Assembly (NCBI GenBank): GCA_041484255.1
Contig: JBGPHE010000001.1
Coordinates: forward strand, 6,240 to 70,239
Origin: Candidatus Nanoarchaeia archaeon
GTDB lineage: Archaea > Nanobdellota > Nanobdellia > Woesearchaeales > ARS49
Direction of reading: 5' to 3'
DNA length: 64,000 nucleotides
This document shows, in pieces, positions 23,571 through 64,000 of this stretch; the first letter of the stretch is position 1, and the number at the start of each line of letters is the position of its first letter. The notes beneath the pieces are model-generated. The model saw only the letters and a list, made by a program, of their open reading frames with translations. It ran no database searches and was not told the DNA's origin. The translations under genes and the position numbers were made by a program.

Positions 23571-23578
23571 CTTATATA
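23571..23578 (+). promoter_or_regulatory. TATA box CTTATATA, candidate promoter of the giant-gene operon (small ORF 23627 plus genes 1-3)
   Basis: 49 bp upstream of the GTG at 23627. Followed by the inverted repeat 23584-23604. Confidence 0.45.
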
Positions 23579-23583
23579 CCTCT

Positions 23584-23604
23584 AATGTTAGTCTAACTAA
23601 CATT
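23584..23604. promoter_or_regulatory. Perfect 9-bp inverted repeat AATGTTAGT-cta-ACTAACATT at the predicted transcription start of the giant operon
   Basis: Seen directly in the sequence. Centred about 20 bp downstream of the TATA. Confidence 0.4.
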
Positions 23605-23626: not shown

Positions 23627-23917
23627 GTGAAAAAAGAGGGTGTTGAGAGTAAAGAGTACGAGAAATTCATACCGAGAGTCATCTTCACCTACTCGACGGA
23701 GCATCTTCTCAAGAAAGACAAGGTCAGATTCTATTACGCGCTGAAGGGCCGCGACGGAAAAACCGGCATCGTCAAGCGCTGCGCCATCGAACAGCTCGGC
23801 CGCACCGTGCTTCTCGTCCCGACGAAACACGCGGCAGATGTCGATGAATTCCTGAAGTACTGGAAGTGCGAATTCCAGCAGCGCCGCGTGCTCGTCGAGC
23901 CGGGAGTGGGCAAATGA
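23627..23917 (+). CDS. Small basic protein (96 aa) heading the giant-gene operon; GTG start, no internal Met
   Basis: ORF with GTG start 49 bp after TATA 23571-23578. Its TGA overlaps the ATG of giant gene 1 (ATGA at 23914-23917). Confidence 0.4.
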   Translation: MKKEGVESKEYEKFIPRVIFTYSTEHLLKKDKVRFYYALKGRDGKTGIVKRCAIEQLGRTVLLVPTKHAADVDEFLKYWKCEFQQRRVLVEPGVGK

Positions 23918-26900
23918 CTCCTGAAAAGCGCGTCGCGTTCGCCGTGCTCCTCTGCGCGGCGATTATCGGCGCAGGCGTGATGCTGCGCGATGCGCACGTG
24001 ACCGGCGATGCGACGTTCGGCACAACAGACTTCACGACGCAGGCAGTCGTCGCGCCCAAGCAGGTCATCCTCATCATCGTCGACGGAATGCAGTACAACC
24101 ATTACGTCACCATGCTGGGCTTCGGCAACCTGTCGAACTTCACGCGGCTGCTGAGCCGCGGCGGCTTCAACACCACGCTGAACATCACAAAGCACACCAG
24201 CACGGTCACCGCGCCGGGCAACGCAGAAATCTACACCGGATTGGGCAGCAGCATCACCGGCGTGACCTCGGACAACTGCAGCACGCCGGTGCCGGTCAAC
24301 ACCACCATCTTTGAGCGGCTCAAACAGTTCAACGCAAGCATCGCGACCGGGACTGTCTACGGCAAGCAGACCTGCTACATTCCGAACGGCGTGCTCGGCA
24401 ATGCCATGTCCGCAATCGACTGGTTCCAGAACCGGTCGCTGTACACGAATACGAACTGGACCGACAACGGCGATATTTGCGCATACGCCCGCAATGCCTC
24501 CACCAAGGCACAGGAGTTCATCGTCAACAACACCAACCGGTCGTTCTTCCTGGTACCGTACTTCGGCAACCCCGACTGCTCAGGCCATGTCGGCACGGAC
24601 AACTCGGTCAATTACAATAACTCCTTCATCGAGGTTGACTACGCGCTCGGCATCCTGCTGGACACGCTGCGCGACCAGGGCATCGAGAACAACACGGCGA
24701 TCATCATCAGCACCGACCACGGCTGGAACGAGGGAACCACAGGCCACTCAACGTTCAATGCGGACACCGCAATCATCCCCCTCATCACCAACAACCGCAG
24801 TGTCATTGCGAACGCGACCATCCTGGGCGTGCGCCAGCAGTGCGACATCGCACCGACCGTGCTGAGCTATTTCGGCGTGCCCTCGGCGAATTACTCAGAC
24901 ATCATCGCCAATGGCTGCTACTCGATGTACGACTCGCTGTTTGACACGCTCACCGGCTGCGCGACTATCAACGCGAGCACGACGCTCGGCCAGAACATCC
25001 AGGCGCCGGGCTCGGGAAGCTGCATCATCGTGAACGCGGACAATATCACGCTCAGCTGCGCAGGGTTCAGCATCGGCGGCAATGCGGCCGGCACCGGCAT
25101 CAATGTCACGAACCGCGCGAATGTCACCATCAAGGACTGCGTTCTTGAGAATTTCACCAACAACATTGTCCTCAACAGCACCAATGCAAGCGTCATCGTC
25201 AACACCACCGCCCGAAAGTCGACGTCCACAAGCATTCTTGTCAGGCAGGGCTTGCGCAACCTCCTCGCAAACAACACAGTCTCCGGCGATTTCATCGGCA
25301 TTCTGCTCTTCAACGGATCCAATAACACCCTGCGCAGCAACAACGTCAGCGGAATCTCGACCGGAATCACGCTGTTTTTCACGCAGAACAACACACTGAT
25401 CAATGATACCGGCGCGAGCACGTCAGGCACCGGCATTTTCCTCACCGCGTCTATCAACAACACGCTGAACAGCGTGCTCGCAACAAGCGTCAGCGGCAAC
25501 GGCCTGATGTTTTCCAGCATGGGTTTGGGAAACAACGTCATCGCGAATACGACCGGCCGCAGCAGCAGCGGCATCGGTGTGTACCTTACGAGCGGCGCGA
25601 ATCTCAATACCCTGCTGAACGTCACTGCCGCAAGCGACAGCAATGCGGCGCTCGCGTTTGACTTTTCCAGCGGAAGCAACCTGTTCAATGACACCACGCT
25701 CCTCAGCAACAGCACGTGGCTGTCGGCAGACAGCGACAGCTACTTCAATACCCTCACCAATGCCAGCTTCGTGTCCCAGTTTGGCGGCATCGCCGTCCTG
25801 AGAAACTTCACCCTTCCGAACGCGACGACCGTCACCCTCGCATCACTGAACATCACGAGCAACCGCGCGTTCCTGAACAGCACGAACCTGTCGTTCCTGA
25901 ACCAGACCGCAGTCATCACGCTGAACGGCGTCACGTCCGTCGACCCGAAGCCGCAGGTGGCCTTGGTCGATGGCGGGGCGTTCTCGGACTGCCTGCCGAC
26001 CGCAGACCCGTTCTGCACCGAACTGAGCTTCAGCGGCGGCGTGTTTGTCTTCAATGTCTCGCATTTCACGACCTTTGCGTCGTTTGAGAGCGCGGACGTG
26101 AATGTGACGCTGACCAAGTCAGACTCGCCCGACCCGGTGAACGCGAGCGGCTATCTGACCTACACTATTACAGTCAATGTCTCAGTGGGCAACGCAAGCA
26201 ATGTAACGCTTACCGATGTCTACCCTGCGCAAGTCATCTTCAATGGCTCCCAGCCCGCGCCGCTTGCCGGAACGAACAACACGTTTGTCCTGGGCAACCT
26301 GTCGCTGAACACCAGCACCGTCGTCAATATCACTGTGCTCGTGCTGAACGTGAGCAACAACACCATCATCAACAATACCGCGAACATCTCGTTCCAGAAC
26401 TCGACCGGCGGCATCGGACGGCTGAACGTGACTGAGAACACTACGGTCATCAACCTCACGTTCCCCGCGCCCTCGCCTTCGCCGACAAGCAGCGGCGGAA
26501 CCAGTGGCGGAGGCGGCTACAGCGTCAGGCCCACACCGAACGCTCCGTCAGTCGCTGCGTCGCAGAACTGCTTCGAAGGCTGGGCGTGCGAAGGCTGGAG
26601 CAGGTGCGAGAATGGCGCGCAGGAGCGCGCGTGCGTTGACCTGAATCACTGCGGCACCGAATCGCTCAAGCCCGCGACGACGCAGTCGTGCGCGAGCCCG
26701 CACGTGCAGGAGCTGGTGCAGGAAGAAGTCGTGGAGCAGCCCGCCGAGCTGCCCCCGCAGCAACCGCAACAGCCTATCCAGTTGCAGATGCAGGGTACAG
26801 AAACGTCTGCCGTGAAGACCGCGTTCTTCACATCCGGAAGCGCGCTGCTCTGGCTGCTCTTGTTCATCATCCTCGGCGGAATCATCGTCACGATCGCATA

Positions 26901-27228
26901 CGCGAAGTTCATGCACCGCGCTCCCGAAGCGCCCGAACCCGACCTTCCGCCCGCGCCGGGACGCGAAGAGCCGCTGCCCGCGCCTGAGCTTGACAATGGC
27001 CTTGCGCAAGAGCACGAAACGCCCTTTACTGAGGAGCTTGAGCTGCAGCCCGCGATAAGCAAGCCCGAACCAGAAGTGCAACGCGCGCTTCCCAAGCCTC
27101 GCGTGGCACGCAGCCGCGAAGAATTGGAGCAGATTGAACGCAAGCTCGCAAGCATTGAGAGTTCATTATCACGCAGCCGGCGCGCCGCACCAAAGCGCAG
27201 CAGCGCACGCAGGAGGACGCGCAAATGA
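23914..27228 (+). CDS. Giant surface protein 1 (1104 aa): signal anchor, nucleotide pyrophosphatase/phosphodiesterase (AlkP-superfamily) domain, parallel beta-helix repeats, DUF11 domain, six-Cys stalk module, TM helix, basic tail
   Basis: Single open frame; domain motifs described in findings; N-x-S/T-rich; C-terminal TM about 26830-26905. Stop overlaps the gene 2 ATG. Confidence 0.8.
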   Translation: MTPEKRVAFAVLLCAAIIGAGVMLRDAHVTGDATFGTTDFTTQAVVAPKQVILIIVDGMQYNHYVTMLGFGNLSNFTRLLSRGGFNTTLNITKHTSTVTAPGNAEIYTGLGSSITGVTSDNCSTPVPVNTTIFERLKQFNASIATGTVYGKQTCYIPNGVLGNAMSAIDWFQNRSLYTNTNWTDNGDICAYARNASTKAQEFIVNNTNRSFFLVPYFGNPDCSGHVGTDNSVNYNNSFIEVDYALGILLDTLRDQGIENNTAIIISTDHGWNEGTTGHSTFNADTAIIPLITNNRSVIANATILGVRQQCDIAPTVLSYFGVPSANYSDIIANGCYSMYDSLFDTLTGCATINASTTLGQNIQAPGSGSCIIVNADNITLSCAGFSIGGNAAGTGINVTNRANVTIKDCVLENFTNNIVLNSTNASVIVNTTARKSTSTSILVRQGLRNLLANNTVSGDFIGILLFNGSNNTLRSNNVSGISTGITLFFTQNNTLINDTGASTSGTGIFLTASINNTLNSVLATSVSGNGLMFSSMGLGNNVIANTTGRSSSGIGVYLTSGANLNTLLNVTAASDSNAALAFDFSSGSNLFNDTTLLSNSTWLSADSDSYFNTLTNASFVSQFGGIAVLRNFTLPNATTVTLASLNITSNRAFLNSTNLSFLNQTAVITLNGVTSVDPKPQVALVDGGAFSDCLPTADPFCTELSFSGGVFVFNVSHFTTFASFESADVNVTLTKSDSPDPVNASGYLTYTITVNVSVGNASNVTLTDVYPAQVIFNGSQPAPLAGTNNTFVLGNLSLNTSTVVNITVLVLNVSNNTIINNTANISFQNSTGGIGRLNVTENTTVINLTFPAPSPSPTSSGGTSGGGGYSVRPTPNAPSVAASQNCFEGWACEGWSRCENGAQERACVDLNHCGTESLKPATTQSCASPHVQELVQEEVVEQPAELPPQQPQQPIQLQMQGTETSAVKTAFFTSGSALLWLLLFIILGGIIVTIAYAKFMHRAPEAPEPDLPPAPGREEPLPAPELDNGLAQEHETPFTEELELQPAISKPEPEVQRALPKPRVARSREELEQIERKLASIESSLSRSRRAAPKRSSARRRTRK
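24052..24900 (+). other. Nucleotide pyrophosphatase/phosphodiesterase (type I phosphodiesterase, AlkP-superfamily) domain of giant protein 1
   Basis: Motifs in NPP-like order: IIVDG (24079-24093), KHTSTVTAPG...YTG (Thr nucleophile context, about 24205-24240), PYFGNPDCSGHVG (24571-24594), STDHGW (24707-24724). Confidence 0.6.
26569..26691 (+). other. Six-Cys membrane-proximal module, copy in gene 1 (CFEGWACEGWSRCENGAQERACVDLNHCGTESLKPATTQSC)
   Basis: Conserved pattern shared with 35943-36065 and 52951-53073. Confidence 0.7.
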
Positions 27229-30200
27229 GCGGCAACGCACAGAAGCGGACCGTGATGCTGCTCGTGCTTGCCTTGGGCCTGCTCGGCGTAGGTACTATGA
27301 TATTCGGCTCGACGCACAGCCCTGCCGCGCTGACCGGACTTGTTACTGACAATGCAAGCGTTCAGCCGGAAGCGCCTGCTGAGCAGCAGCCGATTCCCGA
27401 ATTGCAGGCAGAAGCGACGCCAGAACCGTCATTCTCCACCGAAGCGGCCGCTCCGCGGCTCGTCGATCCTGCGGTGGAACGAGCGCTTGCGGAGAACGGC
27501 ACCGCAGACATCATCATCATCCTCAAAGAAGACGCCGCGTCGCTGTTCGAAACCGAAACGAGCCAAGCAGATGCGCTCGCGCAGCGAAAGGCGTCTGTCG
27601 CGGCCGTGCGCACGGCGTTCGCCGCGGAAATGGGCGGCGGATTCGGAACTGCGAGCAACGCGTTCGAAGTCACGCGCGAGTATGATACGCTCAATGCCAT
27701 CGCGGCAACCATCACCAGCGTCGGCCTGGAAATCTTGAAGACGCGCCAGTCGGTCGAACAGATCGTGCTGGACCGCAGGCTCACGGTCGACCTTACCGTG
27801 AGCGTGCCGCTCATCGATGCGGACGACGTCTGGAACCTCACCGTCAACGGAAGCAACCTCACCGGCAAGGGCGAGGTCATCTGCATCATCGACACAGGCA
27901 TCGACGCCACGCACGTCGCGTTCACCAACAAGATTTTGCCCGGCCAGGACTATGTCAATGAAGACAGCAATCCCGCCGACGACGCGGGCCACGGCACGCA
28001 CGTCTCGGGCATCGCCGCGGGCAACAGCAGCCCGGTGCTCGGCGTCGCAAAGGACGCGAAGATCCTGCCCGTCAAGGTGTGCGACAGCGGCGGCACGTGC
28101 CAGGACACGGATATCCTTGCAGGCATCGACTTCTGCAACAACAACTCGGCGACCTACAACATCAGCGCGATTTCCGGCTCGCTCGGCGACAACAGCCAGT
28201 ACAACTCGACGACCTGCCCGACCACGTACGACAGCATCTTCGCGACGTCGAACTCCTTGGGGCTTATTCCGGTCTTCGCGTCGGGCAACAATGCGTTCAC
28301 GAACGGCATCAGCCACCCTGCCTGCTCGCCGTACGCCATCAGCGTGGGCTCCACGACCAAGGCAGACGCGATGAGCTCGTTCACAAACAGAGGGGGCGAC
28401 CGCCTGGACGTTCTCGCGCCCGGCAGCAGCATTGTTTCCGCGCTCATCACTGGCGGAACCGTCTCCGCATCGGGAACATCGATGGCCACGCCGCACGTCT
28501 CGGGAGCGATCGCGCTCATCCAGCAGAACCAGCGCGCGCTGAACCGCGCCATTGTCAACATCACCGACATGCGCACATTGCTCCAGCAGACCGGCGTGAA
28601 TGTCACGAGCTGGCAGCGCATCGACGTGTACAACGCGATCGCCAAGCTCAACCAGAACTACACCATCAACATCACGGACAACTCTATCGCGAACGGAACG
28701 ACACGCGGCGCAAAGGTGCGGTTCAGCAACTTCACCGATATGAGCAGGTTCGTGGATTGCGGCGTAGTCAGACCCAACTTTGTAGGCATCGACTCCGCAG
28801 CATGCCCGCAGCTGAACAAGAGCGCGCACATCACGTTCGCGAACATCACTGGCATCGGCGCCAGGCCGCTGCGCAACGGCGTGCCCTGCCCGCCCAGCAT
28901 CTGCCAGAACTTCACGTTCGGCAACGGCACGGTCGACTTCGACGTCACGGAGTTTTCAAACTACAGCAGCTTCAACCTGACGAACCTCACCGGCTGCGCG
29001 AACGTGAACGTCAGCTCGGTGCTGACGCAGAACGTCTCCAGCACGAGCAACTGCATCAACATTACTGGAAACAATGTCATCCTGTTCTGCAACGGATTCA
29101 CAATTGCGTTCGACACGGCAGGCGGCGGGCTTGACAACGGCATCAGGGCCAACCAGCGCCGCAATATCACGGTCGACAGCTGCATCATCAGAGATACCAA
29201 TGCAGGAGGCGCGGGCGCTGTGGGAATCGTCGTCAATGGGACGAACAACAGCATCTTCATCAACAACTTTATCCAAGTCAACGGAACGGCGAACAACAAC
29301 GGCTTCATCCTGGACTTGTTTGCGAATAATGTCACCATCGCCAACAACACCGTCAACTCGCGCGGAACGCTCGCGTTCGATTTCCCCATCCAAGTCAGGA
29401 ACCCCGTCAGCAATATCACCATCGCCAACAACACGCTCGTGACGGTGGGCTTGGGCAACAGCGAATGGGGCATTGACGACAGCGGGCTCCAGGACACAGT
29501 CGTCACCAATAATATAATCATTGCACTTTCGGACGGCGGCCTCAACTTCGGCTTTCGCGTGAATGCAGTGCCCCTCAATCTTCAGGTAAGCGACAACAAC
29601 ATCAGCGTGAACGGGAGCGGAAGCTATGCGCTCGTGTTCCCCGACTCTTTAGGGAGCACGCCCAATACCACATTCTCCAACAACGTACTGGGCACGACCA
29701 GCGGCTGGATTACCGTGGGCGCCTTCGCGCGAGTCAACATCACCAACACCACGTTCCGCATGCCGAACGGCAGCATCACCATCCCCGGAACGGTGCAGCT
29801 CAACGAATCGACGGACGTGCTGATTTCCAAGCTGAACATTTCTGCAAATCAGGCGTACCTGAACAGCACAAACCTGACCGCGCTCAACACGACCGCGATC
29901 ATCGCGCTGAACAGTGTCGGCTTCAATGATCCCAAGCCGCAGTTCAGGTTCGGCGAGACCGGCGCGTTCACCGACTGCACACCCACCGTCAACCCGTTCT
30001 GCACCGAGCTGGGCTTCAGCGGCGGCGTCTTCACGTTCAATGTCTCGCACTTCACCGGCTACATCAGCGCGGAAGGCGGCAGCGTCAACCTCACCGGCTG
30101 CGCGACCGTCAACGCGAGCACGGTGCTGACGCAGAACATCGCGTCCAATGACACGTGCCTCTTCACGAACGCGAGCAATATCGTCATCTCCTGCGCAGGG

Positions 30201-33200
30201 CACACCATCACGTACAATGCCAACGGAAGCGGCGCCCTGAGCGATTTCGGAATCAATGTCACGCGCTCATCCAACCTGACCATCACTGACTGCATCGTCC
30301 GCAACGGCAACCTGTCGAGCACCATCGGCGACGCGATGAGCGTGTTCTTCACGAATTACAGCACCTTCAACAACATCTCGCTTGCGGACAACGGCTCCAA
30401 CATCGGGCTGTTCATCATGACGTCGCACAATAACACGTTCGGAAACGATACTGTCCTGACAGGATCTGTTGAGCTGAACGCCATCGCGGAGAACAACTTC
30501 ACCGGCAATGCGTTCAATGGCTCCATTGACAATAGCAACAGCAGGCGGGACATCTTCACGTTCAACACGATGAACGCATCCGTCTCCCTCCAGTCAGGCG
30601 ACGCACGCCTGCGCTTCAACAACATCACCGTCTCCGGCGCGGGTCCGGGCATCAACACCGATCCCGCCGGACCGTTCGAGTTCACCGGCAACCGCGTCGA
30701 GGTGAACGGCGTGAACCCGACCGCGTTCCGCCTTGCCGCGAGCAACGGCAACTTCACCAACAACACGTTCCTTGCGAACGCGTCCGGCACGTCTGTCGCA
30801 ATCAGCATCGAGGCGAGCTCGTCAGGGAACTTCACCGGCAACAATTTCACCGCGCGCGGGACCGCCTCGACCGCGATCCGCTGGCAGTTCTCAGTCCCCA
30901 ACACGACGAGCTTCAGGGACACCGTCATCTCTTCAGACGCAAGCTGGATTGACATGAATCCGAGCGGCGCGGTCACGCCGTCCATCAATTACACGAACAC
31001 GACGTTCGTTTCGGGCAACGGCAGCATTAACATCATCGGCTTCGCGCAGCTGAACAACACCCAGAACGTCACGCTTGCCCGGCTCAATATCTCATCCAAC
31101 CGCGCGTTCCTGAACACTACGAACATCTCCGCATTCAACCAGACCGCAGTCATCGCGCTGACCGGCATCGGCTTCACTGACCCGAAGCCACAGGTCGCCT
31201 TTGTGGATGGCGGCGCGTTCTCGGACTGCTCGCCGACCGCGAACCCATTCTGCACTGAGATAAGTTATACGGGCGGCGTGTTCACGTTCAACACGTCGCA
31301 CTTTACCAGCTTTGACAGCGCGGAAAGCACCGTGACAAACTGCACGCTCGGACCTGTGCTGGTCAACAGCAGCCTCACGCTCGCGCAGGACCTTACCGGC
31401 AACGGCACCTGCCTCATCGCGAACACGAACAACATCGCCATTGACTGCGCAGGATTCGCCATCAACTTCGACCGCGGCGGAGGATTCGGCCCCATATTCG
31501 GCATCGCCGCGCAGAGAAAGACGAACATCAGCATCACCAGCTGCATCATCAGAAGCATCAACGCTTCGGGCCAGAACGGATACTCCATCAACTTCTCGAA
31601 CGTAACACAGTCGGTCATCACCAACAACACGCTCATCGCGAACGGGTCGAACTCGATCGGCATCTACATCGGGGTGAGCTCAGTCGGCGTCAATGTCACC
31701 AACAACACCATCGGCGCATCGCCTATCGGGTTCGTGGTCGGCGTCTCTATCGACAACTCGTCGTTCATCAACGTCAGGAACAGCATACTTATCGCCAACA
31801 GCAGCACCGGCCCTGCCGAGGGCATCCAAGCGACCTCCAACGCGCAATTCATCGCGGTGAGCAACAACAGCATCCGCGTGCTGCAGACTTCAGGCTCCCA
31901 GCCGACAGGATTTGTCATCAATGGCGGCAACGCCACATTCGCAGGCAATACTGTTGTAGTAAATCTGTCCGACACGAGCGACGCGACGGGAATCAGCGTG
32001 GGCGGCGGCGCGGACTTCGTGGTCGAGAACAACACCATTATCCTCGCAATCAACACGACAGACACCATCAACACCAAGCGGGCGTTCCAGCTCGCGTCGC
32101 TGAGCAACGCGGTCGTACGCAACAACACAATCGTCCTGCTTGGCTCTGCCAAGTTCTTCATGGGCATGCTGCTCTCCATCCTGAGCAACGTGACCATCGC
32201 GAATACGAACATCACGTCATTGGCAGAGACGAACACTTCGCTGATAGTCATCGACGGCGTCTTTGGCACAACAACCGTGACGCTGACGAACACAACCCTT
32301 TCCGCGCTCAATGACCCTTGGATCCAGCAAGAAGGAACCGCCGCAACCTCCTCGAACTTCACCAACACAACATTCATCGCGCAGAACGGCTCGGTCCAGT
32401 TCCCTGGATTGGTCCAGATAAACGGCACCAACAACGTGAGCGCGCAGCGGCTCAATATCACCGCGAACCTCGCCTTCCTCAACAGCACCAACCTGACGTT
32501 CCTCAACCAGACTGCAATCATCGCGCTGAAAGGCATCGTATCGGTCAGCCCGAAAGCGCAGGTCGCGTTCGTTGACGGCGGCGCATTCAGCGACTGCATC
32601 AGCACGGCGAACCCGTTCTGCACCAACCTCAGCTACGCAGGGGGCGTCTTCACGTTCAACACGTCGCACTTCACCAGCTACCAGAGCGCGGAGAGCGGGA
32701 CGAACATCACCGGATGCCCCATCACCATTAATGTGAGCACGACGCTGACGCAGAACTTGCAAAGCAACAGCAGCTGCATCACGTTCGGCAATGACAGCAT
32801 CGCGCTCGACTGCGGCGGATTCGCCCTCAACGGCACGCAGAACGGCACCGGCATCAATGCGACCGCAAGGAACAACATCTCCATCGTCAACTGCTTCGTC
32901 AATAACTTCACGCAGGATATCGTGCTCGACCGCGTCAACAACAGCGTGATGCGCAATGACACCGCGCGCAGCGCGGCGCAGGAAGGCGTCCTGCTCTACT
33001 CGGCCGTCAACGACCTCCTCGTGAACGTCTCGGGCGAGGGCGCGGTCAACCGGGACGGAATCCAGCTGGTCAATTCCACCACTGCAGGCACCAACAACAC
33101 GCTCATCGGCGTGAACGGCACGAGCAACAGCTCGTCAGGCGTGGGGCTGAATATCCAAATTGACAATACGACCGTCAATGACAGCAGGGGCGTAAGCCTC

Positions 33201-36731: not shown

Positions 36732-36738
36732 TCAATTG

Positions 36739-53570: not shown

Positions 53571-53728
53571 ATTCATGAACAATCGTTCATATGAATAGCC
53601 AGATGGAAAAATTCTTAAACTAAACTCCACCTACGACGCGCGGGGTGAGTAAATTGAAGGGGATAGACCACTGTCTACGCTTTACTTCTTTTTGCTCCAC
53701 GATACGTTCATATGAATTTTCATATGAA
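53571..53728. promoter_or_regulatory. Cluster of palindromic motifs in the AT-rich region upstream of the AbrB-like gene and giant gene 4
   Basis: CGTTCATATGAA at 53584-53595 and 53705-53716, TTCATATGAA at 53719-53728, TTCATGAA at 53573-53580. TATA-like TATTATATA at 53555-53563 and TTTATCAAAA at 53759-53768. Confidence 0.45.
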
Positions 53729-53785: not shown

Positions 53786-53965
53786 GTGGGTTTAACCAGA
53801 AAGCTTCAGCGGACGAAGAAAGATCAGTATACGCTGACGATTCCAAAAGCATTAGTGGAACTGCTCAACCTCAAGGAGCAGGACGAGATCGAGTTTAACC
53901 TTGTTGACGGCAATATCACGCTGAAGAAGTCGGCGCGCAAGCGGGGTGAGAAGGATGCGAAGTAA
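53786..53965 (+). CDS. AbrB/MazE (SpoVT-AbrB, swapped-hairpin) family small DNA-binding protein (59 aa), GTG start
   Basis: Translation VGLTRKLQRTKKDQYTLTIPKALVELLNLKEQDEIEFNLVDGNITLKK... matches the AbrB-type pattern (..tiPk.l.e.l.l..gd.v....dg..i.L.k). GGGGAG lies 8 nt upstream. Under 60 aa, so absent from the ORF track. Overlaps the giant gene 4 start by 11 nt. Confidence 0.5.
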   Translation: MGLTRKLQRTKKDQYTLTIPKALVELLNLKEQDEIEFNLVDGNITLKKSARKRGEKDAK

Positions 53966-56900: not shown

Positions 56901-59900
56901 ATCCGCACGAACGGCACATCCATAACCCAAGGCATCCGGCTGGAAAGCGTCGTCGGCAACAACACGGTCGCGAACAATAATATCACGGTGAGGGCTTCGG
57001 GAACGCTCAACCACGGCATCTATATGCTCTCCACGGCGAACAACAACACCATCGCCAACAACACGATCGACATCAGGGGCGGCACGACCACCAACAACGG
57101 CATCCGCGTGGAGGCAATCGCCAACAACAACACGCTCAACAACAATACCATCACCATCGCGATGATGTCCGGCAGCGACAACTACGGCATCTATTTGTTT
57201 AACGCCGCGTTCAACAACATCGTCATCAACAATACGGTGAATACCAGCGGAACCACCAGCAACATCGGCATCTTCCTCTTCACCAATGTCGGCAACGCGA
57301 TCATCGCGAACAACAGCATCCAGACCAATGGCAGCAGCATCAATTACGGCATCTATATGGTCACGCAGGCGGACAACACCACCATCGACAACAACATCAT
57401 CACGACTGCGGGCGCCGACAGCTACGGCATCAGGATGGACAACAGCCGCGGCAACAACATCACGCGCAACAATATCACCGGCGCGCAGTATGACGGCTTG
57501 TTCATCGAAGGAACCGACATCACGCACTTCACGAACAACACGATCACCAGCTCAAACACCATCAACGGCTCGCCCATCTTCTATTACGGCGGCGCATACG
57601 ACTCGCCCGCGTGCCCGAACAACCAGCAATTGCTCGTCAACAACACCGCGTCGCACATCGACTTCCTGCGATGCAACAACGTCACGCTGACAAACTACAC
57701 CAGCATGGAGGTCTTGTCGCTCATCAACACGAGCAACATGACGATTACCCAAATCCAGCAGCGCAGCAGCAAGTACGGCATCCGCGTGTTCTTCACGACC
57801 GGCCCGAACACTATCAGCAACAGCAACATCACCGCGTCGAACACGACGGTCACGGACAACTACGGCATCTTCGTGTCGGTCGCAGGCAACACGACCATCA
57901 TCGGCAACAACGTCACCACGATGAGCGCACTGGCGAACAACCACGGCATCTACCTCGTCACCAATGTCACCAACAACACGGTCGCGAACAACATCGTGAA
58001 CACGACCGGCACGAGCAACAACAACGGCATCCGCGTGGAAGGCAATGGCAACAACAACACGATTGTGAATAACTCAGTCAACACGAAGGGCTCGGGCGCG
58101 AGCAACTACGGCATCGTCCTGTTCAACACCGCGTCCGGCAACATGGTGCTGAACAACACCGTCAGGGTGAACGGAAGCAGCAGCAACTTCGCAGTCTATG
58201 TCATCACCCAAGCGAGCAACAACACCATCGCCAACAACAACATCACCGCCGACGGCCCGAGCGGCAGCAACATAGGCATCCGCCTCGAGGGCGCGGGTGG
58301 CAACGTGCCGCCGATCACGAACAACCTCATCGCGAACAACACGATTGCGGTGCTTCCGCAGAGTGCCAGCACCAACTTCGGCATCTATCTTATTACGGTT
58401 GTCTCGAATAATGTTATCACCAACAACACTATCCGCATAAACGGCACGAGCAACGACAGGGGCGTTCAGCTGGATAACACCGTCAGCAACAACACCATCG
58501 CAAACAACAATATCACCATGCGCACGACCGGCAGCGGCAACATCGCAGTCTATATCGTCACCGCCTCGCACAACAACACCGTCGCGAACAACAGCATCAC
58601 GATGTCGGGCTACGCGAACAGCAATCAGGGCATCCGCCTCGAGAGCACAGTCACCAACACCACCATCGCGAACAACACCATCTTCATGAACCAGTCGACG
58701 TCGAGCGACAACTACGGCATCCACTTCTTCAACACCGTCTTCAACAACAGCGTCACCGGCAACACCATCTTTGTCAACGCGACGACGAACGTGTACGGCA
58801 TCCTGCTCCAAAACACTGTCGGCAGCAGCTTCTTCGACAACAACAACCTCGCCACGCAAGGCACGACGCCCGGCTACGGCGTCTTCCTCTTAACCACGTC
58901 CACGGGGTCGTTCTTCAACCGCACAGTCCTGAACAACCCGACAGACTGGCTTGACGCAGACTCCACGTCGGCAGGAAACTTCACCAACACGACATTCCAG
59001 CAGCCGAACGGCAGCATCGCCATCCCCGGCAGGTTCCAATTCAACAACTCGGTGCTCCTGAAGAACAAGCTCAACATCAGCGCGAACAAGGCGTTCCTCA
59101 ACAGCACTGCCTTCGCCATCCTGAACCAGACGGGCATCATCACGCTGAACGGCGTGAACTCCAGCCAGCCGCGGCCCACCGCGGACTTCGATACCGGAAC
59201 GTTCGTCGACTGCCCCGCGACGCAGTGCACCGTCCTGAACTTCGCCAATAACGTCCTCACGTACAACACGACCGGCTTCACGACCTATTCCTGGGCGGAG
59301 AACGGGCTCAATATCTCGTTCACGAAGACCGACAATCCCGACCCCGTGAGCCCGGGCACGACGCTGAATTACACCATCACGTTCATGGTCAACACGGGCA
59401 ACGCGAGCAATGTCACGGTGACCGACCAGTATCCTGCACAAGTTATCTTCCTCAGCGCGCAGCCGTCGCCGCTCGCGGGAACGAACGACACGTTCATCGT
59501 CGGCAACCTCACGAACGGGACGAGCTTCAGCGTCAACATCAGCACGCAGGTGCTCGGCAATGCCGCGGGCCTGCGCCTCAACAACACCGCGAATGCCTCA
59601 TTCCAGAACGAGACCGGCGCGGCGCGCACGGTGAACGTGACCGAGGCCACCACCGTCCTCTCCATACCGACCATTGCGCAGGTCATCCTGAACACCACCA
59701 ACCCGCTCACGAACGACACCAACCAGAACCTGACCCTGTTCATCATCAACTCCTCCGATCCGGATAATGACATCACCAGGAACATCACCGACTGGCGCAG
59801 GAACGGCACGAGCATCGCGGTGACGAACTTCCCGTTCGAGACCAACACGAGCAGCACCGCCTCGAGCGCCATCCGCGACTACAGCACGTACCGGGCGAAC

Positions 59901-62900
59901 GCCACGCTGGGCTCGGGCGCGCAGACGCCGACCTGGAACCTCTCCGGACCGCTGGGCGGCGCGTACAGCTTTGACGGCAATGACTTCCTGACCTCTCCGA
60001 CTCCCACGCCCACCCTGCCGCTGACGTTCGAGTTCTGGGTGAAGCCCGCCACGAGCACGCCGGTCGGCATCTTCGACACCGCGCCGAACGTGGCTGCCGT
60101 GCTCCGCAACTTCCCCGGCGGCTCGGTCGAATGGCACAGCGGCGACCCGTCGGTCAGCCTCGGCCTGACCGCAGGCGCGTGGCAGCACTTGGTCCTGATT
60201 TTCAGCTTCGACACCAACCGCCACATCACGTACTACCGCAACGGCGTGCTGAACCTGACCGCGAACGGCAGCGCGAGCAGCGGCTTTGCGTGGAGCAACC
60301 CCATCCGCTTCGGCGACATCAACAACGGCGGCGCGGGAACGTACACCGGCGAAATAAGCGAGATCCGCATCTACAACCGCTCGCTCACGGCGTCGGAAGT
60401 GCAGAAACTCTACGTGGAAGGCAATGCGAGCATCTACCCGCTCACGATAACGGGCGGCAACACCATCGCCGGCGACAACTGGAGCGCGTGCGCGACGCCG
60501 AACGACAACAACCTCACCGGCTCATTCGGCGATGGCACGACCGTGTGCAGCGGCACCGTGACCATCAATGCCGTGCAGAACGCGAGCTACAGCTCGCCGG
60601 TCATCGCGCAGGTCATCCTGAACACGACCACTGTCGCGCTGAACGACACCAACCAGAACCTGACGCTGTTCATCATCAATGAGACCAGCGCGACCAACCT
60701 CGCGGTGCAGAACATCACGGACTGGCGGCTGTTCAACAGCAGCGTTTATACAAACAATGGCAGCATCGCATTCCTGAACCTGCCCTTTGAGACCAACCAG
60801 AGCGGCAACGTGACCGCAGGAGCCATCCGCGACTACAGCACGTTCGGCAGCAACGCGACGCTGGGCGACGGAAGCGCAGCCGCGGCCCCTGTCTGGAACA
60901 ACACCGACCGCATTGGCGGCGCGTACCGCTTTGACGGCAGCAACGACTTCATCACCGTTCCGGACAGCCCGCTCTGGGCATACGGCACGAGGAACTTCAC
61001 CATTGACCTGTGGGTGAACTTCAACGCGGTCAACGGCGGCGGCTTCTCGAGCATCCCGAACGTGTTTATCGCGCAGGATGACGGCGGCGGAGCCACCAAC
61101 AAGTGGATTTTCTCGCTCGGCGGCGGCGTGCTCAACCTACACATCAACAACCCAGGCCAAGGCGTGAGCGTCTTCCTCGCGCAGGCGCCGTTCTCGCCCG
61201 TGCTCAACCAATGGTACCACATCGCAATCCGCAGGGACGCGACGAATTTCACCACGTTCATCAACGGCACGGCTGCCGCGTCGGAAGTGAACACCGTCGC
61301 AGTACCTGACGCGAGCGCCAAGGTCACCATCGGCGAGTCCGAGGGCACCGGCTTCATCAACGCCGAGCTGGACGAAGTCCACATCTGGAACCGCTCGCTC
61401 ACCGACGCCCAGATCGCGGACATTTTCCGCGAGGGCAATGCCACGAACAAGCACCGCATCCAGACATTCATCAGCAACGAGACGCGCGCCGGCGACATAT
61501 GGCAGTCCTGCGTGACGCCGAATGACAACATCACGGACGGCAACACGACGTGCAGCAACAACGTGACCGTCAACGCAGTACAGAACGCGAGCAATGTCGC
61601 CCCTGCTATCGCGCAGGTCATCCTGAACACGACAAATGTCACGCTGAACGACACCAATCAGAACCTGACCTTATTCATCATCAACGAGACTGCGGGAAGC
61701 AACCCTGCAATTACGAACATCACTGCATGGAGCGTCAACAATAGGTCGTACTTCCTGCTGAACACGCCGTTCGAGGCGACTATCAGCAACAGCACGTTCA
61801 TCAAGGACTACGCGCTGGGCAACAACGGAACGAACTACAGCGGCACGACGCCCACGCTCAACGCAACCACTGGCCCGGACGGCTTTGGCGCGGTCAACTT
61901 CAGCGGCACGACCAACCAGTTCTACAACTTCGGAAGCAATGACGCGTTCCGCCCGCCCGCCAAGATTTCGCTCGAGGCGTGGGTAAATGTCACCACGTTT
62001 GTCGAATTCGCAGGCATCGTGAGCACGGTCTTTGACAGCGGCGCGGTCGAGAGCGGCTACGGCCTGCTGACGCACAGCGGCGGTTCCATTTACTTTGTGC
62101 TCGCTCCCGAAGGCTCAGGCATCGTCTACCTCACCGCACCTGCATCGTCGCTGACCGCGAACCGATGGGCGCACGTGGTCGGCACGTATGACGGCCTCAC
62201 GATGCGTCTCTATGTGGACGGCGTGCAGGTTGCGACCCAGGCGACGAACACGAAGATCGACTACAATCCGCTCAACAACCTGACCATCGGCGCGTACAAG
62301 GACGACGACGAGTTCTACGGATTCAATGGCGTCATCGCGCAGGTGCGCGTCTGGAACGCCACGCTGAACGATTCGCAGGTCGCGCTGCTTAACAACACGC
62401 GGCTGGATAACGCGCGTGTCGACACGCTGGTGGGTGCACAGCTCCTGCAGGGACAGGTCTGGCAGTCGTGCGTCACGCCCAATGACCGCAGCGCGGACGG
62501 CAACGCGACGTGCAGCAACAACCTGACCGTCGCGACGCACACGCTGAACTACACGCAAGTCATCCTCAACACGACCAATGTCGCGACGAACGACACCAAT
62601 CAGAACCTGACGCTCTTCGTCATCAACGCGAGCGATTCCAGCGCGAGCCCCATCCAGAACATCTCGGACTTCCGCCGCAATGGCACGAGCATCGCGTTCG
62701 TGAACCTGCCGTTCGAGACCAACACCAACCTGACGCAGGGCGGCAATATCCGCGACTACAGCTCGTTCAACAACCCCATCTCGCTGGGCAATAGCTCAGT
62801 CTTCGCGACGCCGTTCTGGAACAGCACCGCGAAAGTCGGCGGCGGCTACCGGTTTGACGGAGCGAACGATTTCCTCGAGACAGACAACCTCGACATCGGC

Positions 62901-64000
62901 AACAACTTCACGGTCGAACTGTGGATCTTGCCGCAGAGTGCGGGCGCGTTCCAGCACCTCGTGTCCAATGCGTTCGGCGCATCAAATTACGGCGCGCTCT
63001 ATTTCAATGCAGACCACTTAGATTACTACCAAGGCAGCTCCTCACGAGTGACCACTGCAGGAGGAACCATCGGCCAGAACGCCTGGACGCACGTCGCGCT
63101 TGTGTACAACGGAAGCATAGCAACTCTTTATCTGAACGGAACAACAGCCGGAACGAGCGCGGCGTTCACCACGACGTTCAACAACTCCGTGCGCATCGGC
63201 CAGGCAATCCCCTTCGAGTCCGCATACTTCACCGGCTTCATGGACGAGGTGAAGATCTACAACCGCGCATTGAGCGTCGAGCAGATCCGTCAGGACTTCG
63301 TGCTCGGCAACGCGAGCCTGCGCTCGACCGTCATCGCGCGCAATGAGACCATCGCAGGGGACATCTGGACTGCGTGCGCGACGCCGAACGACAACTTTAC
63401 CGATGGCGGCACGTTCTGCAGCAATAACGTGACCATCAATCCAGTGCAGAACGTGACCGTGAACAATAGCGCCCCATCCATCGCGCAGGTCATCCTGAAC
63501 ACGACGAACGTCTCAAGCAATGACACCAACCAGAACCTGACTGTCTTCATCATCAACGCGACCGATGTGGACAATGACGTCGTGCAGAATATCACGGACT
63601 TCCGCAGGAACAACCTCAGCATCGCCATCATCAACTTCCCGTTCGAGACCAACACGAGCAACATAACCAATGCGTCGCTCCGCGACTACAGCACGTTCAA
63701 CAACAACGGCACGCTCGGCGGAGGAGCTGCGGCGTTCGTGCCGCGCTGGAACAACTCCGGCAGGCCGGGCGGCGCGTACGTCTTCGACGGCGTGGACGAT
63801 TATATCAACGTCTCCGACAGCACGTCGCTGGACAGCCTGCAGAACTTCACGCTTGAGTTCTGGCTGAGCCCGTCGCCGACCCAAGCTGCGTCCGCAAACA
63901 TCCTCAGAAAAGAAAGCAGCCCGTTCACGAACGGCTTCGGCATCGAGATGGACGGAACGCCGAACAGCAATACGTACATCGCGGGCTGGAAGGACGGCTC
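53955..64000 (+). CDS. Giant surface protein 4 (more than 3348 aa, 3' end outside window): signal anchor, He_PIG-like domain, about 1400 aa of PbH1 beta-helix coils including a 508-aa tandem duplication, junction module, DUF11, at least 5 LamG-like units
   Basis: Open frame from the ATG at 53955 to the window end with no stop. Absent from the ORF track, presumably because it lacks a stop. N-terminus paralogous to gene 3. Confidence 0.75.
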   Translation, partial: MRSKRAALSDRLLIGLVLLAGVFGIAVMLWGTGIITAPQFGSGAVTGSVVATPAASPITGMDAAAVVNEAPIYTGPASFSTPQDTALTIDLSQYFSDPEHDELSFSAAEEDQIAAAVDGSLLTLTPAAGFAGERTLTIVASDGVNVLRAPVKIVVEGTAAPEQPPAPAPSAPQPEPQPPAPVTQNATQPPEITTSDFTNPGFTSQDVITSCPATMNTSTVLTQSITSTTTCITFGADNIALDCAGFNITFGTGGGSANGIVARNRTNVTITGCTIRDTNAAGTFGIGINFTNVNNSLIVNTSVFTNGTNDDYGIYFVSNDSNNTVTNVSVFARGTSINNIGIYFITNANNNTVDNSTISGLSTANVNNHGVRIEAASSNNLFTNNTVRTNGSSSDFGFYLFNNVTLNTIANNNITADGTSGTNIGIRLEGSGNGGVNSNFIANNTIQTFPPGASNNYGIYLFTSVSNNIVTNNTVRTNGTSTNVGIRLESTASNNTVANNNITVRGTGSNNNGVLLTTTANNNTVANNTIDMRAGTTTNDGILLQTTANNNTISNNSIMIAQMSSTDNRGIVLFSTAFNNILVNNTINTTGTINNYGIVLSTNVGNTTIANNSIQTNGSSINYGIWLTAVSDNTTIANNLITTAGADSYGIRLDNSRGNNITGNNITSAQYDGLFIEGTDITHFTNNTITSSNTINGSPIFYYGGAYDSPACPNNQLLPVNGTASHIDFLGCNNVTLTNYTSIEVLTLVNTSNMTITQIQQRSSKYGIRVFFTTGPNNISFSNITASNTTVSDNYGVYLLVAGNTTIANNNVTTISALANNHGIYLLTNATNNTVANNIVNTTGTSNNNGIRVEGNGNNNTIVNNTVSTKGSSTNNYGIVLFNTASGNLVLNNTVRANGSSSDYGIYVITAASNNTVANNSITTDGTSGTNIGIRIEGANNVPVVNNLVANNLIQTFPPGANSNYGIQLVTVVSNNIITNNTIRTNGTSITQGIRLESVVGNNTVANNNITVRASGTLNHGIYMLSTANNNTIANNTIDIRGGTTTNNGIRVEAIANNNTLNNNTITIAMMSGSDNYGIYLFNAAFNNIVINNTVNTSGTTSNIGIFLFTNVGNAIIANNSIQTNGSSINYGIYMVTQADNTTIDNNIITTAGADSYGIRMDNSRGNNITRNNITGAQYDGLFIEGTDITHFTNNTITSSNTINGSPIFYYGGAYDSPACPNNQQLLVNNTASHIDFLRCNNVTLTNYTSMEVLSLINTSNMTITQIQQRSSKYGIRVFFTTGPNTISNSNITASNTTVTDNYGIFVSVAGNTTIIGNNVTTMSALANNHGIYLVTNVTNNTVANNIVNTTGTSNNNGIRVEGNGNNNTIVNNSVNTKGSGASNYGIVLFNTASGNMVLNNTVRVNGSSSNFAVYVITQASNNTIANNNITADGPSGSNIGIRLEGAGGNVPPITNNLIANNTIAVLPQSASTNFGIYLITVVSNNVITNNTIRINGTSNDRGVQLDNTVSNNTIANNNITMRTTGSGNIAVYIVTASHNNTVANNSITMSGYANSNQGIRLESTVTNTTIANNTIFMNQSTSSDNYGIHFFNTVFNNSVTGNTIFVNATTNVYGILLQNTVGSSFFDNNNLATQGTTPGYGVFLLTTSTGSFFNRTVLNNPTDWLDADSTSAGNFTNTTFQQPNGSIAIPGRFQFNNSVLLKNKLNISANKAFLNSTAFAILNQTGIITLNGVNSSQPRPTADFDTGTFVDCPATQCTVLNFANNVLTYNTTGFTTYSWAENGLNISFTKTDNPDPVSPGTTLNYTITFMVNTGNASNVTVTDQYPAQVIFLSAQPSPLAGTNDTFIVGNLTNGTSFSVNISTQVLGNAAGLRLNNTANASFQNETGAARTVNVTEATTVLSIPTIAQVILNTTNPLTNDTNQNLTLFIINSSDPDNDITRNITDWRRNGTSIAVTNFPFETNTSSTASSAIRDYSTYRANATLGSGAQTPTWNLSGPLGGAYSFDGNDFLTSPTPTPTLPLTFEFWVKPATSTPVGIFDTAPNVAAVLRNFPGGSVEWHSGDPSVSLGLTAGAWQHLVLIFSFDTNRHITYYRNGVLNLTANGSASSGFAWSNPIRFGDINNGGAGTYTGEISEIRIYNRSLTASEVQKLYVEGNASIYPLTITGGNTIAGDNWSACATPNDNNLTGSFGDGTTVCSGTVTINAVQNASYSSPVIAQVILNTTTVALNDTNQNLTLFIINETSATNLAVQNITDWRLFNSSVYTNNGSIAFLNLPFETNQSGNVTAGAIRDYSTFGSNATLGDGSAAAAPVWNNTDRIGGAYRFDGSNDFITVPDSPLWAYGTRNFTIDLWVNFNAVNGGGFSSIPNVFIAQDDGGGATNKWIFSLGGGVLNLHINNPGQGVSVFLAQAPFSPVLNQWYHIAIRRDATNFTTFINGTAAASEVNTVAVPDASAKVTIGESEGTGFINAELDEVHIWNRSLTDAQIADIFREGNATNKHRIQTFISNETRAGDIWQSCVTPNDNITDGNTTCSNNVTVNAVQNASNVAPAIAQVILNTTNVTLNDTNQNLTLFIINETAGSNPAITNITAWSVNNRSYFLLNTPFEATISNSTFIKDYALGNNGTNYSGTTPTLNATTGPDGFGAVNFSGTTNQFYNFGSNDAFRPPAKISLEAWVNVTTFVEFAGIVSTVFDSGAVESGYGLLTHSGGSIYFVLAPEGSGIVYLTAPASSLTANRWAHVVGTYDGLTMRLYVDGVQVATQATNTKIDYNPLNNLTIGAYKDDDEFYGFNGVIAQVRVWNATLNDSQVALLNNTRLDNARVDTLVGAQLLQGQVWQSCVTPNDRSADGNATCSNNLTVATHTLNYTQVILNTTNVATNDTNQNLTLFVINASDSSASPIQNISDFRRNGTSIAFVNLPFETNTNLTQGGNIRDYSSFNNPISLGNSSVFATPFWNSTAKVGGGYRFDGANDFLETDNLDIGNNFTVELWILPQSAGAFQHLVSNAFGASNYGALYFNADHLDYYQGSSSRVTTAGGTIGQNAWTHVALVYNGSIATLYLNGTTAGTSAAFTTTFNNSVRIGQAIPFESAYFTGFMDEVKIYNRALSVEQIRQDFVLGNASLRSTVIARNETIAGDIWTACATPNDNFTDGGTFCSNNVTINPVQNVTVNNSAPSIAQVILNTTNVSSNDTNQNLTVFIINATDVDNDVVQNITDFRRNNLSIAIINFPFETNTSNITNASLRDYSTFNNNGTLGGGAAAFVPRWNNSGRPGGAYVFDGVDDYINVSDSTSLDSLQNFTLEFWLSPSPTQAASANILRKESSPFTNGFGIEMDGTPNSNTYIAGWKDG
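54166..54435 (+). other. He_PIG/cadherin-like Ig domain at the N-terminus of giant protein 4
   Basis: PIYTGPASFSTPQDTALTIDLSQYFSDPEHDELSF...LTLTPAAGFAGERTLTIVASDG. Confidence 0.55.
55115..58830 (+). repeat. Tandem duplication of a 1524-nt (508-aa) PbH1 beta-helix unit in gene 4: two full copies (55115-56638, 56639-58162) and a diverged third (58163 to about 58830)
   Basis: Near-identical stretch GCGCAGTATGACGGCTTGTTCATCGAAGGAACCGACATCACGCACTTCACGAACAACACG... at 55959 and 57483 (period 1524 nt, in frame), about 95% nt identity over about 680 nt by eye. Unit starts RTNGSSSDFG / RANGSSSDYG / RVNGSSSNFA. Confidence 0.8.
59672..64000 (+). repeat. At least five LamG-like repeat units in gene 4, continuing past the window end
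   Basis: Unit starts at about 59683, 60601, 61607, 62563, 63480, with the same VILNTT...NDTNQNLT.FIIN leader and W..C.TPNDN..DG.T.CSNNVT linker. Confidence 0.65.

Follow-up and report, generated by a model that had tools for sequence, protein, structure and literature searches.

What an archaeon with a reduced genome would do with about 40 kb of contiguous giant genes, and how so costly a set of genes would be controlled, is the question raised by a 64,000-nucleotide (nt) stretch of DNA from Candidatus Nanoarchaeia archaeon (Woesearchaeales; assembly GCA_041484255.1, contig JBGPHE010000001.1, forward-strand positions 6,240 to 70,239). The whole stretch is called the window below and is numbered from its first nucleotide. 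DPANN archaea are mostly uncultured and presumably spend their lives attached to other cells; to our knowledge, how they recognise and exploit their partners is largely obscure outside Nanohaloarchaeota and Nanobdellota. Four giant genes, g1 to g4, are encoded in the window together with two small genes, g0 and an AbrB-like open reading frame (ORF). The explanation favoured here, which we consider probable, is that this is a native DPANN locus for four paralogous, glycosylated, type-I-anchored fibres, built by module shuffling, that contact a partner and are produced from two regulated units. A narrower proposal, put forward more tentatively, is that g0 represents a new family of ferredoxin-fold dimeric regulators that, with TGTTAA-N5-TTAACA operators, constitutes a lineage-wide cassette for giant surface proteins, with host-interaction fibres that evolve rapidly by module shuffling encoded behind it.

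Genes were taken from a six-frame ORF list and the corresponding translations. The coding layout and the order of modules in the products are as follows.

23627-23917, + strand: g0, 96 amino acids (aa), GTG start, first cistron
23914-27228, + strand: g1, 1104 aa from an ATG that overlaps the g0 stop (ATGA); signal-like N-terminus, AlkP/NPP head, beta-helix, DUF11 Ig-like domain, six-Cys module, Pro-rich linker, transmembrane (TM) helix, basic tail
27225-36731, + strand: g2, 3168 aa, ATGA overlap with g1; N-terminal part with signal-like N-terminus, weak I9-like propeptide, S8 subtilase and four Cys-capped beta-helix modules of ~400 aa; C-terminal part with four DUF11 domains, six-Cys module, three TM helices and basic tail
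36739-53535, + strand: g3, 5598 aa, 581 kDa, starting 7 nt past the g2 stop; signal-like N-terminus, cadherin/Big_9 head, beta-helix-like region, Gly-rich modules, LamG array, eight DUF11 domains, six-Cys module, TM helix, tail
53786-53965, + strand: AbrB-like ORF, 59 aa, isoelectric point (pI) 9.75, overlapping the g4 ATG by 11 nt
53955->64000, + strand: g4, >3348 aa, partial and open at the window end; signal-like N-terminus, cadherin/Big_9 head, long PbH1 beta-helix, DUF11, LamG array

The initial annotation of this DNA had described four consecutive coding sequences on one strand, and their sizes were reproduced by the ORF list. The four genes span 23914-64000 and total 13,218 codons, or 63% of the window. 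Coupling of genes 1-3 to each other and to a leader ORF had also been described. The overlaps of g0 with g1 and of g1 with g2 agree with that description, and g3 follows g2 after a short gap; the label of leader ORF for g0 does not stand, for reasons given below. Gene 4 is indeed set apart from genes 1-3, by a 250-nt intergenic region between g3 and the AbrB-like ORF, a small gene that had been overlooked. On the NCBI contig g4 reaches 3472 aa and is still open at the contig end. A metagenome scan for its C-terminus with the last 199 aa returned only relatives that are 46-57% identical.

When the four products were compared with each other by BLASTP, long matches at 30-55% identity were obtained, for example 47% over 1546 aa for g3 and g4 and 54% over 859 aa for g2 and g3. 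These alignments show all four proteins to be mosaics of common module families, old paralogues that arose by module shuffling, not recent duplicates. The claim that an archaeal locus encodes four paralogous, modular giant surface proteins with enzymatic or Ig-like heads, of which g1-g3 are anchored at the C-terminus, is supported by this comparison and by the profile matches described below.

Genes as repetitive as these could be the product of collapsed or chimeric repeat assembly, and the available contigs do tend to end inside g3 or g4. The direct DNA repeats inside 23.5-64 kb are 60-87% identical (most 60-78%); none exceeds 87% identity, and there is therefore no substrate for assembly collapse. 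The window is colinear with contigs from other sources at 0-20 substitutions and no indels: 2 differences in 29,507 nt were found against a Joint Genome Institute (JGI) metagenome contig, 10 in 29,507 nt and 20 in 20,180 nt against NCBI contig JBGPZU010000001.1 (GCA_041493925.1), and two Logan assemblies are identical to it across the g3-AbrB-g4 junction. The reading frames stay open over up to 16.8 kb, and orthologous giants are present in other species. Mis-assembly, which had been named as an outcome that would overturn the annotation, is not borne out by these data, and an artefact is considered extremely improbable. Where the window and the NCBI assembly differ, the substitutions fall in clusters, with four within 36 nt at 45936-45971 in the LamG region of g3 and six within 213 nt at 54582-54794 at the start of the g4 beta-helix; microdiversity in the population, or gene conversion among the repeats, may account for these clusters.

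The heads were identified with Pfam profiles; domain calls are matches above the gathering thresholds unless stated otherwise. The proposal that the head differs from gene to gene was confirmed, with a phosphodiesterase-type domain (PF01663) in g1, a subtilase (PF00082) in g2 and Ig-like domains (Cadherin_5/Big_9) in g3 and g4. The two enzymatic heads are located as follows.

24019-24948, + strand: AlkP/NPP head of g1, aa 36-345 (PF01663, also PF00884)
27864-28595, + strand: S8 subtilase head of g2, aa 214-457 (PF00082)

The g1 head scores 52 bits against PF01663, for which the gathering score is 23. Residues D22/G23, T62/T64, D186/H190, D233/H234 and H243 are invariant in an alignment of 15 homologues, and every invariant motif of the family is retained in g1 (VDG, T-x-TAPG, PD..GH, DHG and GH). 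We take these residues to be the two-metal site and the Thr nucleophile, as is established for NPP and alkaline phosphatase enzymes. The head is 40-56% identical to secreted proteins of 285-499 aa that are annotated in Nanoarchaeota as alkaline phosphatase family proteins. The homologues detected are all stand-alone enzymes of 237-542 aa; no stalked AlkP head was found elsewhere, either among the database matches (none >542 aa) or in the 80 related loci introduced below. Judged by its conserved residues, the g1 head is apparently an active phosphoesterase of the AlkP/NPP type.

The g2 head matches PF00082 with an E value of 2e-42 and a score of 145.9 bits, relative to a gathering score of 21.8. 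The closest solved structure is that of Tk-SP from Thermococcus kodakarensis (PDB 3afg), to which about 250 residues align with an E value of 9e-32. The motifs IIDTGID, GHGTHV and GTSMATPHV, which carry the Asp, His and Ser of the catalytic triad, appear in order in the alignment with 3afg. A match to the I9 propeptide profile (PF05922) is sub-threshold (17.9 vs 21.2 bits, E value of 0.005); it covers profile positions 3-80 of 82 and lies in the expected place. The g2 head is apparently an active subtilase, and the heads of g3 and g4 are presumed to be cadherin/Ig-like binding domains. Both enzymatic heads align with their known counterparts, Tk-SP and the stand-alone DPANN AlkP proteins, with the catalytic residues retained; they differ from these proteins in being fused to a stalk of 750-2700 aa and a membrane anchor.

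The modules between the heads and the C-termini, and the anchoring elements of g1-g3, are located as follows.

39226-44058, + strand: five Gly-rich modules of ~300 aa in g3, aa 830-2440, ~1600 aa in all
~44986-48438, + strand: LamG array of g3 (PF13385)
~54567-58874, + strand: PbH1 beta-helix of g4 (PF13229/PF05048)
~59952-63998, + strand: LamG array of g4 (PF13385)
26569-26691, + strand: six-Cys module of g1
35943-36065, + strand: six-Cys module of g2, with identical spacing
52951-53073, + strand: six-Cys module of g3, with identical spacing
26818-26916, + strand: TM helix of g1 (this and the next two from a hydropathy scan)
36168-36434, + strand: three TM helices of g2
53197-53283, + strand: TM helix of g3

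The mixture of PbH1, DUF11, LamG and Gly-rich repeats that had been described from the sequence was recovered. Right-handed beta-helix/NosD profiles (PF13229/PF05048) match g1 and g4, with nine stretches in g4; PF01345 (DUF11/CLIPPER Ig-like) matches all four proteins; and PF13385 (LamG_3) matches five stretches in g3 and five in g4. The He_PIG profile (PF05345), which had been listed with these, was not found in g1-g4 with Pfam. The Gly-rich modules of g3 (GGGGAGHGGIGG..., GGGGSGGSI...) were read from the sequence and gave no profile match. An AlphaFold2 (AF2) model of one module, built with a 5-row paralogue alignment, has a predicted local distance difference test (pLDDT) value of 55 and leaves the Gly-rich core unmodelled; the 300-aa module is a candidate new domain family. 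The numbers of N-x-S/T sequons in g1, g2, g3 and g4 are 62, 216, 375 and 215, relative to 22, 75, 127 and 106 expected from composition. The enrichment is 2-3 fold, and an abundance of sequons had also been noted initially; the proteins are predicted to be N-glycosylated. The content of Asp plus Glu is 6-7%, and the giants are not acidic in the manner of halophile proteins.

The six Cys residues of the C-terminal module are spaced C-x5-C-x5-C-x8-C-x5-C-x12-C in g1, g2 and g3. When the isolated module was searched, no Pfam family was matched even at E values up to 10. An exhaustive profile search returned 5640 representative proteins at E ≤1e-3 and 1217 at E ≤1e-10, many with 3-15 tandem copies of a unit of ~44 aa that has the pattern C-x-E-x-W-x-C-x-x-W-x-x-C...Q-x-R-x-C-x-D...CGT...KP. 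Some of these proteins also bear peptidoglycan-binding domains, and the unit therefore occurs in bacteria too. The module is a widespread tandem-repeat domain and not an invention of this locus. Its assignment as a thrombospondin type-1 repeat was considered and rejected; no TSP1 profile is matched, and the W-x-C-x-x-W...C...Q-x-R-x-C appearance is a resemblance only.

Past the six-Cys module the products of g1-g3 continue, as had been reported for them, with a Pro-rich linker, the TM helix or helices and a basic tail. The tails after the last TM helix are 103, 98 and 83 aa long in g1, g2 and g3, respectively, with pI values of 8.4-10.2. They are rich in Pro and in Lys/Arg, contain a short heptad-like stretch, end in a cluster of Arg and Lys, and have no Pfam match. 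Sorting by the PGF-CTERM/archaeosortase route was rejected, since the C-termini of g1-g3 have no PGF motif and a tail of 83-103 aa follows the TM helix. At the other end, a hydrophobic segment is present in all four proteins by hydropathy scan, and a motif of the type [ILP]TG[LFYM] lies 5-10 residues past this helix (regions 23914-24030, 27225-27350, 36739-36930 and 53955-54140). The motif is found in 30 of 56 secreted proteins linked to g0, relative to 0.13 expected per window, and in 5/150 and 0/34 of other secreted proteins from Candidate Phyla Radiation (CPR) and DPANN genomes. The motif might serve as a signal for processing or sorting.

These features suggest how the proteins would be arranged at the cell surface. 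The giants would be exported by the Sec pathway through the N-terminal signal-like segment, composed of the hydrophobic helix and the [ILP]TG[LFYM]-type motif. Products g1-g3 would be retained by the C-terminal TM helix in type-I topology with the basic tail in the cytoplasm, and the six-Cys module and Pro-rich linker would be placed next to the membrane. The Ig-like (DUF11), beta-helix, LamG and Gly-rich modules would form a shaft, coated with N-glycans, with a length of the order of 100 nm. With an N-terminal head, a C-terminal anchor and a long shaft between them, the head would therefore be displayed at the distal tip. The fibres are proposed to reach, bind, and locally digest or harvest surface material of a partner or host, or nearby polymers; the protease and phosphoesterase heads would cut envelope proteins and material joined by phosphoester bonds, so that the products could be taken up. 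A function of contact and harvest fits an organism with a reduced genome.

The same proteins could be read as mainly structural, that is, as a glycoprotein coat, a substitute for an S-layer or a matrix, that would shield the cell and give it its shape, and in which the heads serve self-maturation or general nutrient scavenging. Archaeal envelope glycoproteins, too, are typically rich in sequons, anchored in the membrane and built from repeated Ig or beta-helix units; the locus lies among housekeeping genes with conserved synteny; and the stand-alone counterparts of the AlkP head are secreted enzymes of an ordinary kind. This reading is judged unlikely, however. The gene behind g0 turns over rapidly in close relatives, where products of 337, 1104 and >3348 aa share the same signal peptide, a pattern that is characteristic of interaction proteins and not of structural ones; the predominant modules are binding modules of the LamG and cadherin-like types; and four divergent paralogues are present instead of one abundant lattice protein.

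It is already recognised that DPANN archaea and other reduced symbionts possess giant surface proteins, and that several can occur in one cluster. Their role as mediators of DPANN host contact has a precedent (PMC6642349, PMC10266531), and clusters of adjacent giant membrane proteins have been reported for other ultra-reduced archaea (bioRxiv 10.1101/2025.05.02.651781). The resemblance to SPEARE proteins, suggested in the initial annotation, holds for the overall architecture. Both sets of proteins come from small-genome DPANN archaea that devote several percent of the genome to a few giant proteins; in Ca. Nanopetramus SG9 four giant genes make up 4% of the genome (PMC6642349). In both, an N-terminal signal is combined with LamG and Ig-like modules for adhesion outside the cell and with a region that resembles serine proteases, and a C-terminal TM segment anchors the protein and leaves its C-terminus cytoplasmic. 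A role in host contact has been proposed for both.

The most conserved part of SPEARE proteins is their cytoplasmic C-terminal domain, which was named type III restriction-like (PMC6642349) and was later re-read as a VirB4/TraG-like ATPase that forms the conserved core of the family (PMC10266531). If the locus encoded a SPEARE-type or type-IV-secretion-like invasion apparatus, the giants would be channels powered by such a cytoplasmic ATPase. Giant size, signal, LamG/Ig modules, serine protease module, C-terminal TM segment and the presence of several paralogues are all shared (PMC6642349). The defining domain is absent from g1-g3, in which the cytoplasmic tails are short (83-103 aa), basic and of low complexity; no VirB4/TraG gene follows g3, where the AbrB-like ORF and g4 are found instead; and the composition is not that of acidic halophile proteins. 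An apparatus of this kind is therefore very unlikely. The module set also differs (PbH1 beta-helix, DUF11, six-Cys and Gly-rich modules), a bona fide S8 domain with an intact triad is accompanied by an AlkP/NPP head, and the genes are arranged in operons headed by small basic proteins. By domain content g1-g3 are not SPEARE proteins, and the resemblance is architectural only, although the fibres likely work in the manner of giant DPANN host-contact proteins.

A comparison can also be made with bacterial RTX adhesins (LapA, SiiE and MpIBP) and with the giants of Omnitrophota and CPR bacteria, in which an Ig-like or beta-solenoid shaft likewise displays binding or lytic domains far out. Such giants are enriched in organisms that are attached to other cells. 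The proteins described here differ in their archaeal host, in predicted Sec-type export and N-glycosylation, and in a C-terminal TM anchor in place of RTX secretion by a type I secretion system (T1SS) with retention at the outer membrane. No RTX/HemolysinCabind profile was matched in g1-g4 with Pfam.

The first gene of the cluster, g0, encodes a basic protein (pI 9.6) that is predicted to be cytoplasmic. It had been taken for a mere leader ORF, an interpretation that is contradicted by its more than 500 homologues, which are 60-90% identical and with few exceptions 85-97 aa long, and by the palindromes of its own promoter described below. No match to g0 was found in local Pfam, NCBIfam or PADLOC libraries, and a sequence search of the PDB gave chance-level matches only (E ≥0.78). 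Tandem-duplicated homologues of 157-167 aa exist, and the precomputed labels PF26973 and PF26932 are attached to tandem forms. The existence of tandem forms fits a dimer. The AF2 model of g0 has a pLDDT of 89 and a beta-alpha-beta-beta-alpha-beta topology, according to which this strongly conserved protein family would have a ferredoxin fold. The modelled helix 29-40 holds the invariant residues K30, D31, K32, R34, F35, Y36, Y37, A38 and K40, and the invariant G41-R42-D43-G44 follows directly.

The neighbourhood of g0 was surveyed in 80 species-representative loci (L010-L089), of which 68 are informative in that the contig permits the length of the downstream gene to be judged. Most often the start of the next gene lies at -4 nt (ATGA) relative to the g0 homologue or no more than a few tens of nt away, and the encoded product usually begins with a hydrophobic segment. 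This downstream gene encodes at least 1000 aa in 42 of the 68 informative loci, a length that at most 5% of the ORF-genes found there overall reach. When a genome has two copies of g0 (L014/L017 and L016/L020), a giant gene is found behind each copy. In close relatives the gene behind g0 retains the signal peptide as the body varies from 337 to 1104 to >3348 aa. Giant genes are thus linked to g0 across the survey. Both S8-headed and cadherin-headed giants recur in relatives: orthologues of g2 with an S8 head stand behind g0 in L016 and L017 (3027 and 3034 aa, 40% identity over ~1100 aa), and g4-like giants stand behind g0 in L014 and L020. Conserved synteny of small ORF, NPP-headed gene and S8-headed gene had been suggested as a check; the pairing of g0 with S8-headed giants was recovered, and no stalked NPP head was found in the 80 loci.

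The region upstream of g0 contains the following elements.

23520-23536, + strand: distal operator-like palindrome TGTTAACCTATTTAACA, upstream of the TATA box
23571-23579, + strand: TATA-like box CTTATATAC, read from the sequence and conserved in the alignment of L010, L011 and L014
23586-23602, + strand: proximal operator-like palindrome TGTTAGTCTAACTAACA, between the TATA box and the g0 start

The TATA-like box is presumed to act as the promoter element of the unit. The pattern TGTTAR-N5-YTAACA occurs twice in the window, relative to 0.11 expected, and these two copies, with no others, flank the TATA box of g0; the palindromes would therefore act at the level of DNA. An exact match to the pattern lies within 300 nt 5' of the g0 homologue in 55 of the 80 loci. 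The 24 kb just upstream of g0 contain 76 exact palindromes. Another 20 occur in the rest of the surveyed sequence (1.05 Mb), the majority of them also upstream of g0 but at a greater distance. The remaining loci mostly have palindromes with one mismatch, and copies are often 40 nt apart. The palindrome is thus linked to g0, as the giant genes are.

The intergenic region in front of the second unit carries palindromes of another sequence.

53586-53728, + strand: three TTCATATGAA palindromes, starting at 53586, 53707 and 53719, between g3 and the AbrB-like ORF

All three matches to TTCATATGAA in the window fall in this 143-nt stretch, relative to 0.87 expected window-wide, and they are candidate operators of the second transcription unit. 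The AbrB-like ORF matches PF04014 with 33 bits (gathering threshold 24.7) and scores 26.8 bits against TIGR01439, just below the cut-off of 28.3. The same pair of an AbrB-like gene and a giant gene is found in a relative, contig JBBILB010000006.1 (L006/L010). A toxin-antitoxin reading of the ORF, as a MazE-like antitoxin, was rejected; its only downstream gene is g4, and no PADLOC matches were obtained.

Small AbrB/SpoVT regulators that head operons are the closest comparison for both small genes. The 59-aa ORF is preceded by three palindromes, as expected if it is autoregulated, and g0 heads the first unit in the way that the AbrB-like ORF heads the g4 unit. The fold of g0 is unrelated to theirs, being ferredoxin-like and without family assignment, and neither small gene has the toxin partner that would be expected in a toxin-antitoxin pair. 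Expression would accordingly proceed from two units, g0 to g1, g2 and g3, and AbrB-like ORF to g4, each headed by a small basic protein that is translationally coupled to giant genes. With coupled operons of this design, the synthesis of ~1.4 MDa of protein would be subject to tight feedback. In this arrangement g0 is most likely a dimeric, palindrome-binding autoregulator that meters the costly giant genes; this is the most economical reading of its pI of 9.6, its invariant helix 29-40, the tandem forms and the presence of AbrB in the equivalent position of the g4 unit.

A different role for g0 would be that of a chaperone or targeting factor, or of an RNA-binding processivity or translation factor, for long secreted proteins, with the palindrome bound by another regulator. 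The tight ATGA coupling of g0 to a secreted-protein gene in most of the 80 loci would suit such a role, as would the specific N-terminal signature, a hydrophobic helix with [ILP]TG[LFYM], of 30 of the 56 downstream proteins. The palindromes, however, lie upstream of and across the predicted transcription start site, outside the mRNA, and are co-conserved with the g0 protein across the lineage. Half of the downstream proteins have ordinary signal peptides without the ITG motif, and in the analogous g4 unit the leading position is taken by AbrB, a genuine DNA-binding fold. A role of g0 outside regulation is on balance rather doubtful, and the autoregulator reading is kept as the working proposal.

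Several points weigh against the explanation as a whole. The g4 sequence ends before its C-terminus, and the evidence for C-terminal anchoring covers g1-g3 only. The N-terminal segment could be an uncleaved anchor, in which case both ends would be bound to the membrane and the picture of a distal head would fail. Some Woesearchaeota may be free-living. With respect to g0, the downstream gene encodes fewer than 1000 aa in 26 of the 68 informative loci, and some of the products are without a hydrophobic N-terminus; the palindrome could be bound by a factor other than g0; and a regulator that is translationally coupled to its own target genes is unusual.

The setting of the cluster is that of an archaeal chromosome. 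The 23 kb upstream encode GluRS, a thermosome subunit, FtsZ, Spt5, L11, an RsmB-like methyltransferase, GAPDH, PGK and the RNase P protein Rpr2. For g0, as for the neighbourhood as a whole, the nearest relatives are metagenome-assembled genomes (MAGs) labelled Candidatus Woesearchaeota, Nanoarchaeia or Nanoarchaeota, and all relatives found are uncultured MAGs. In contig JBBILB010000006.1 the order is FtsZ ... L11 ... GAPDH, PGK, a 417-aa gene on the minus strand, Rpr2 and g0, followed by a coupled secreted protein, an AbrB-like gene and a coupled giant. Because this relative shares the gene order, the locus is native rather than an island. A mobile island was ruled out by this syntenic housekeeping flank and by the absence of an integrase or tRNA; no tRNA gene or Rfam family was found within the window.

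Many third-party annotation (TPA) MAGs titled 'uncultured Methanosarcinales archaeon' (L014, L015, L017-L019, L023 and others) carry g0 cassettes of the Woesearchaeota type, and their taxon labels look like placeholders or errors. Two patches of low GC content, at 4001-6000 and 10001-12000 of the window, have 47-48% GC, relative to 55-60% elsewhere. The ORFs located there, 4533-5393 (286 aa) and 10366-11298 (310 aa), have no family match, and the latter has an internal signal-like segment. The ORF at 15394-17175 (593 aa) has an orotidine monophosphate (OMP) decarboxylase domain in its C-terminal half only (aa 326-584) and may encode a fused pyrimidine-synthesis enzyme.

The initial annotation had proposed a candidate novel cell-surface system with a combination of modules not described before. 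No near-identical characterised operon was found in the literature by accession or motif, and no publication on the accession, the g0 motif or the palindrome was found. Giant surface proteins of this general kind are already known; what is new here is the module set, the stalked AlkP/NPP head and, above all, the g0/palindrome cassette, the most novel element of the locus. The six-Cys repeat, present in thousands of proteins and not in Pfam, and the 300-aa Gly-rich module are candidate new domain families.

For the biology of the group, the locus indicates that Woesearchaeota too invest about 40 kb in giant surface proteins, with an architecture that differs from that of SPEARE proteins and with intact protease and phosphoesterase heads that would be displayed on long, glycosylated stalks. 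The giant proteins alone are of moderate interest, and a small-protein/operator cassette that extends across the lineage adds more. Large secreted-protein genes are marked by g0 and its palindrome in dozens of species, and the pair can be used to mine metagenomes for interaction loci; it is also a testable candidate regulator-operator pair in a lineage without a genetic system. If the proposal is correct, the fibres encoded behind the cassette would include the only known stalked AlkP/NPP, and the cassette would provide a sequence handle with which the host-interaction genes of an uncultivated archaeal order could be found and switched.

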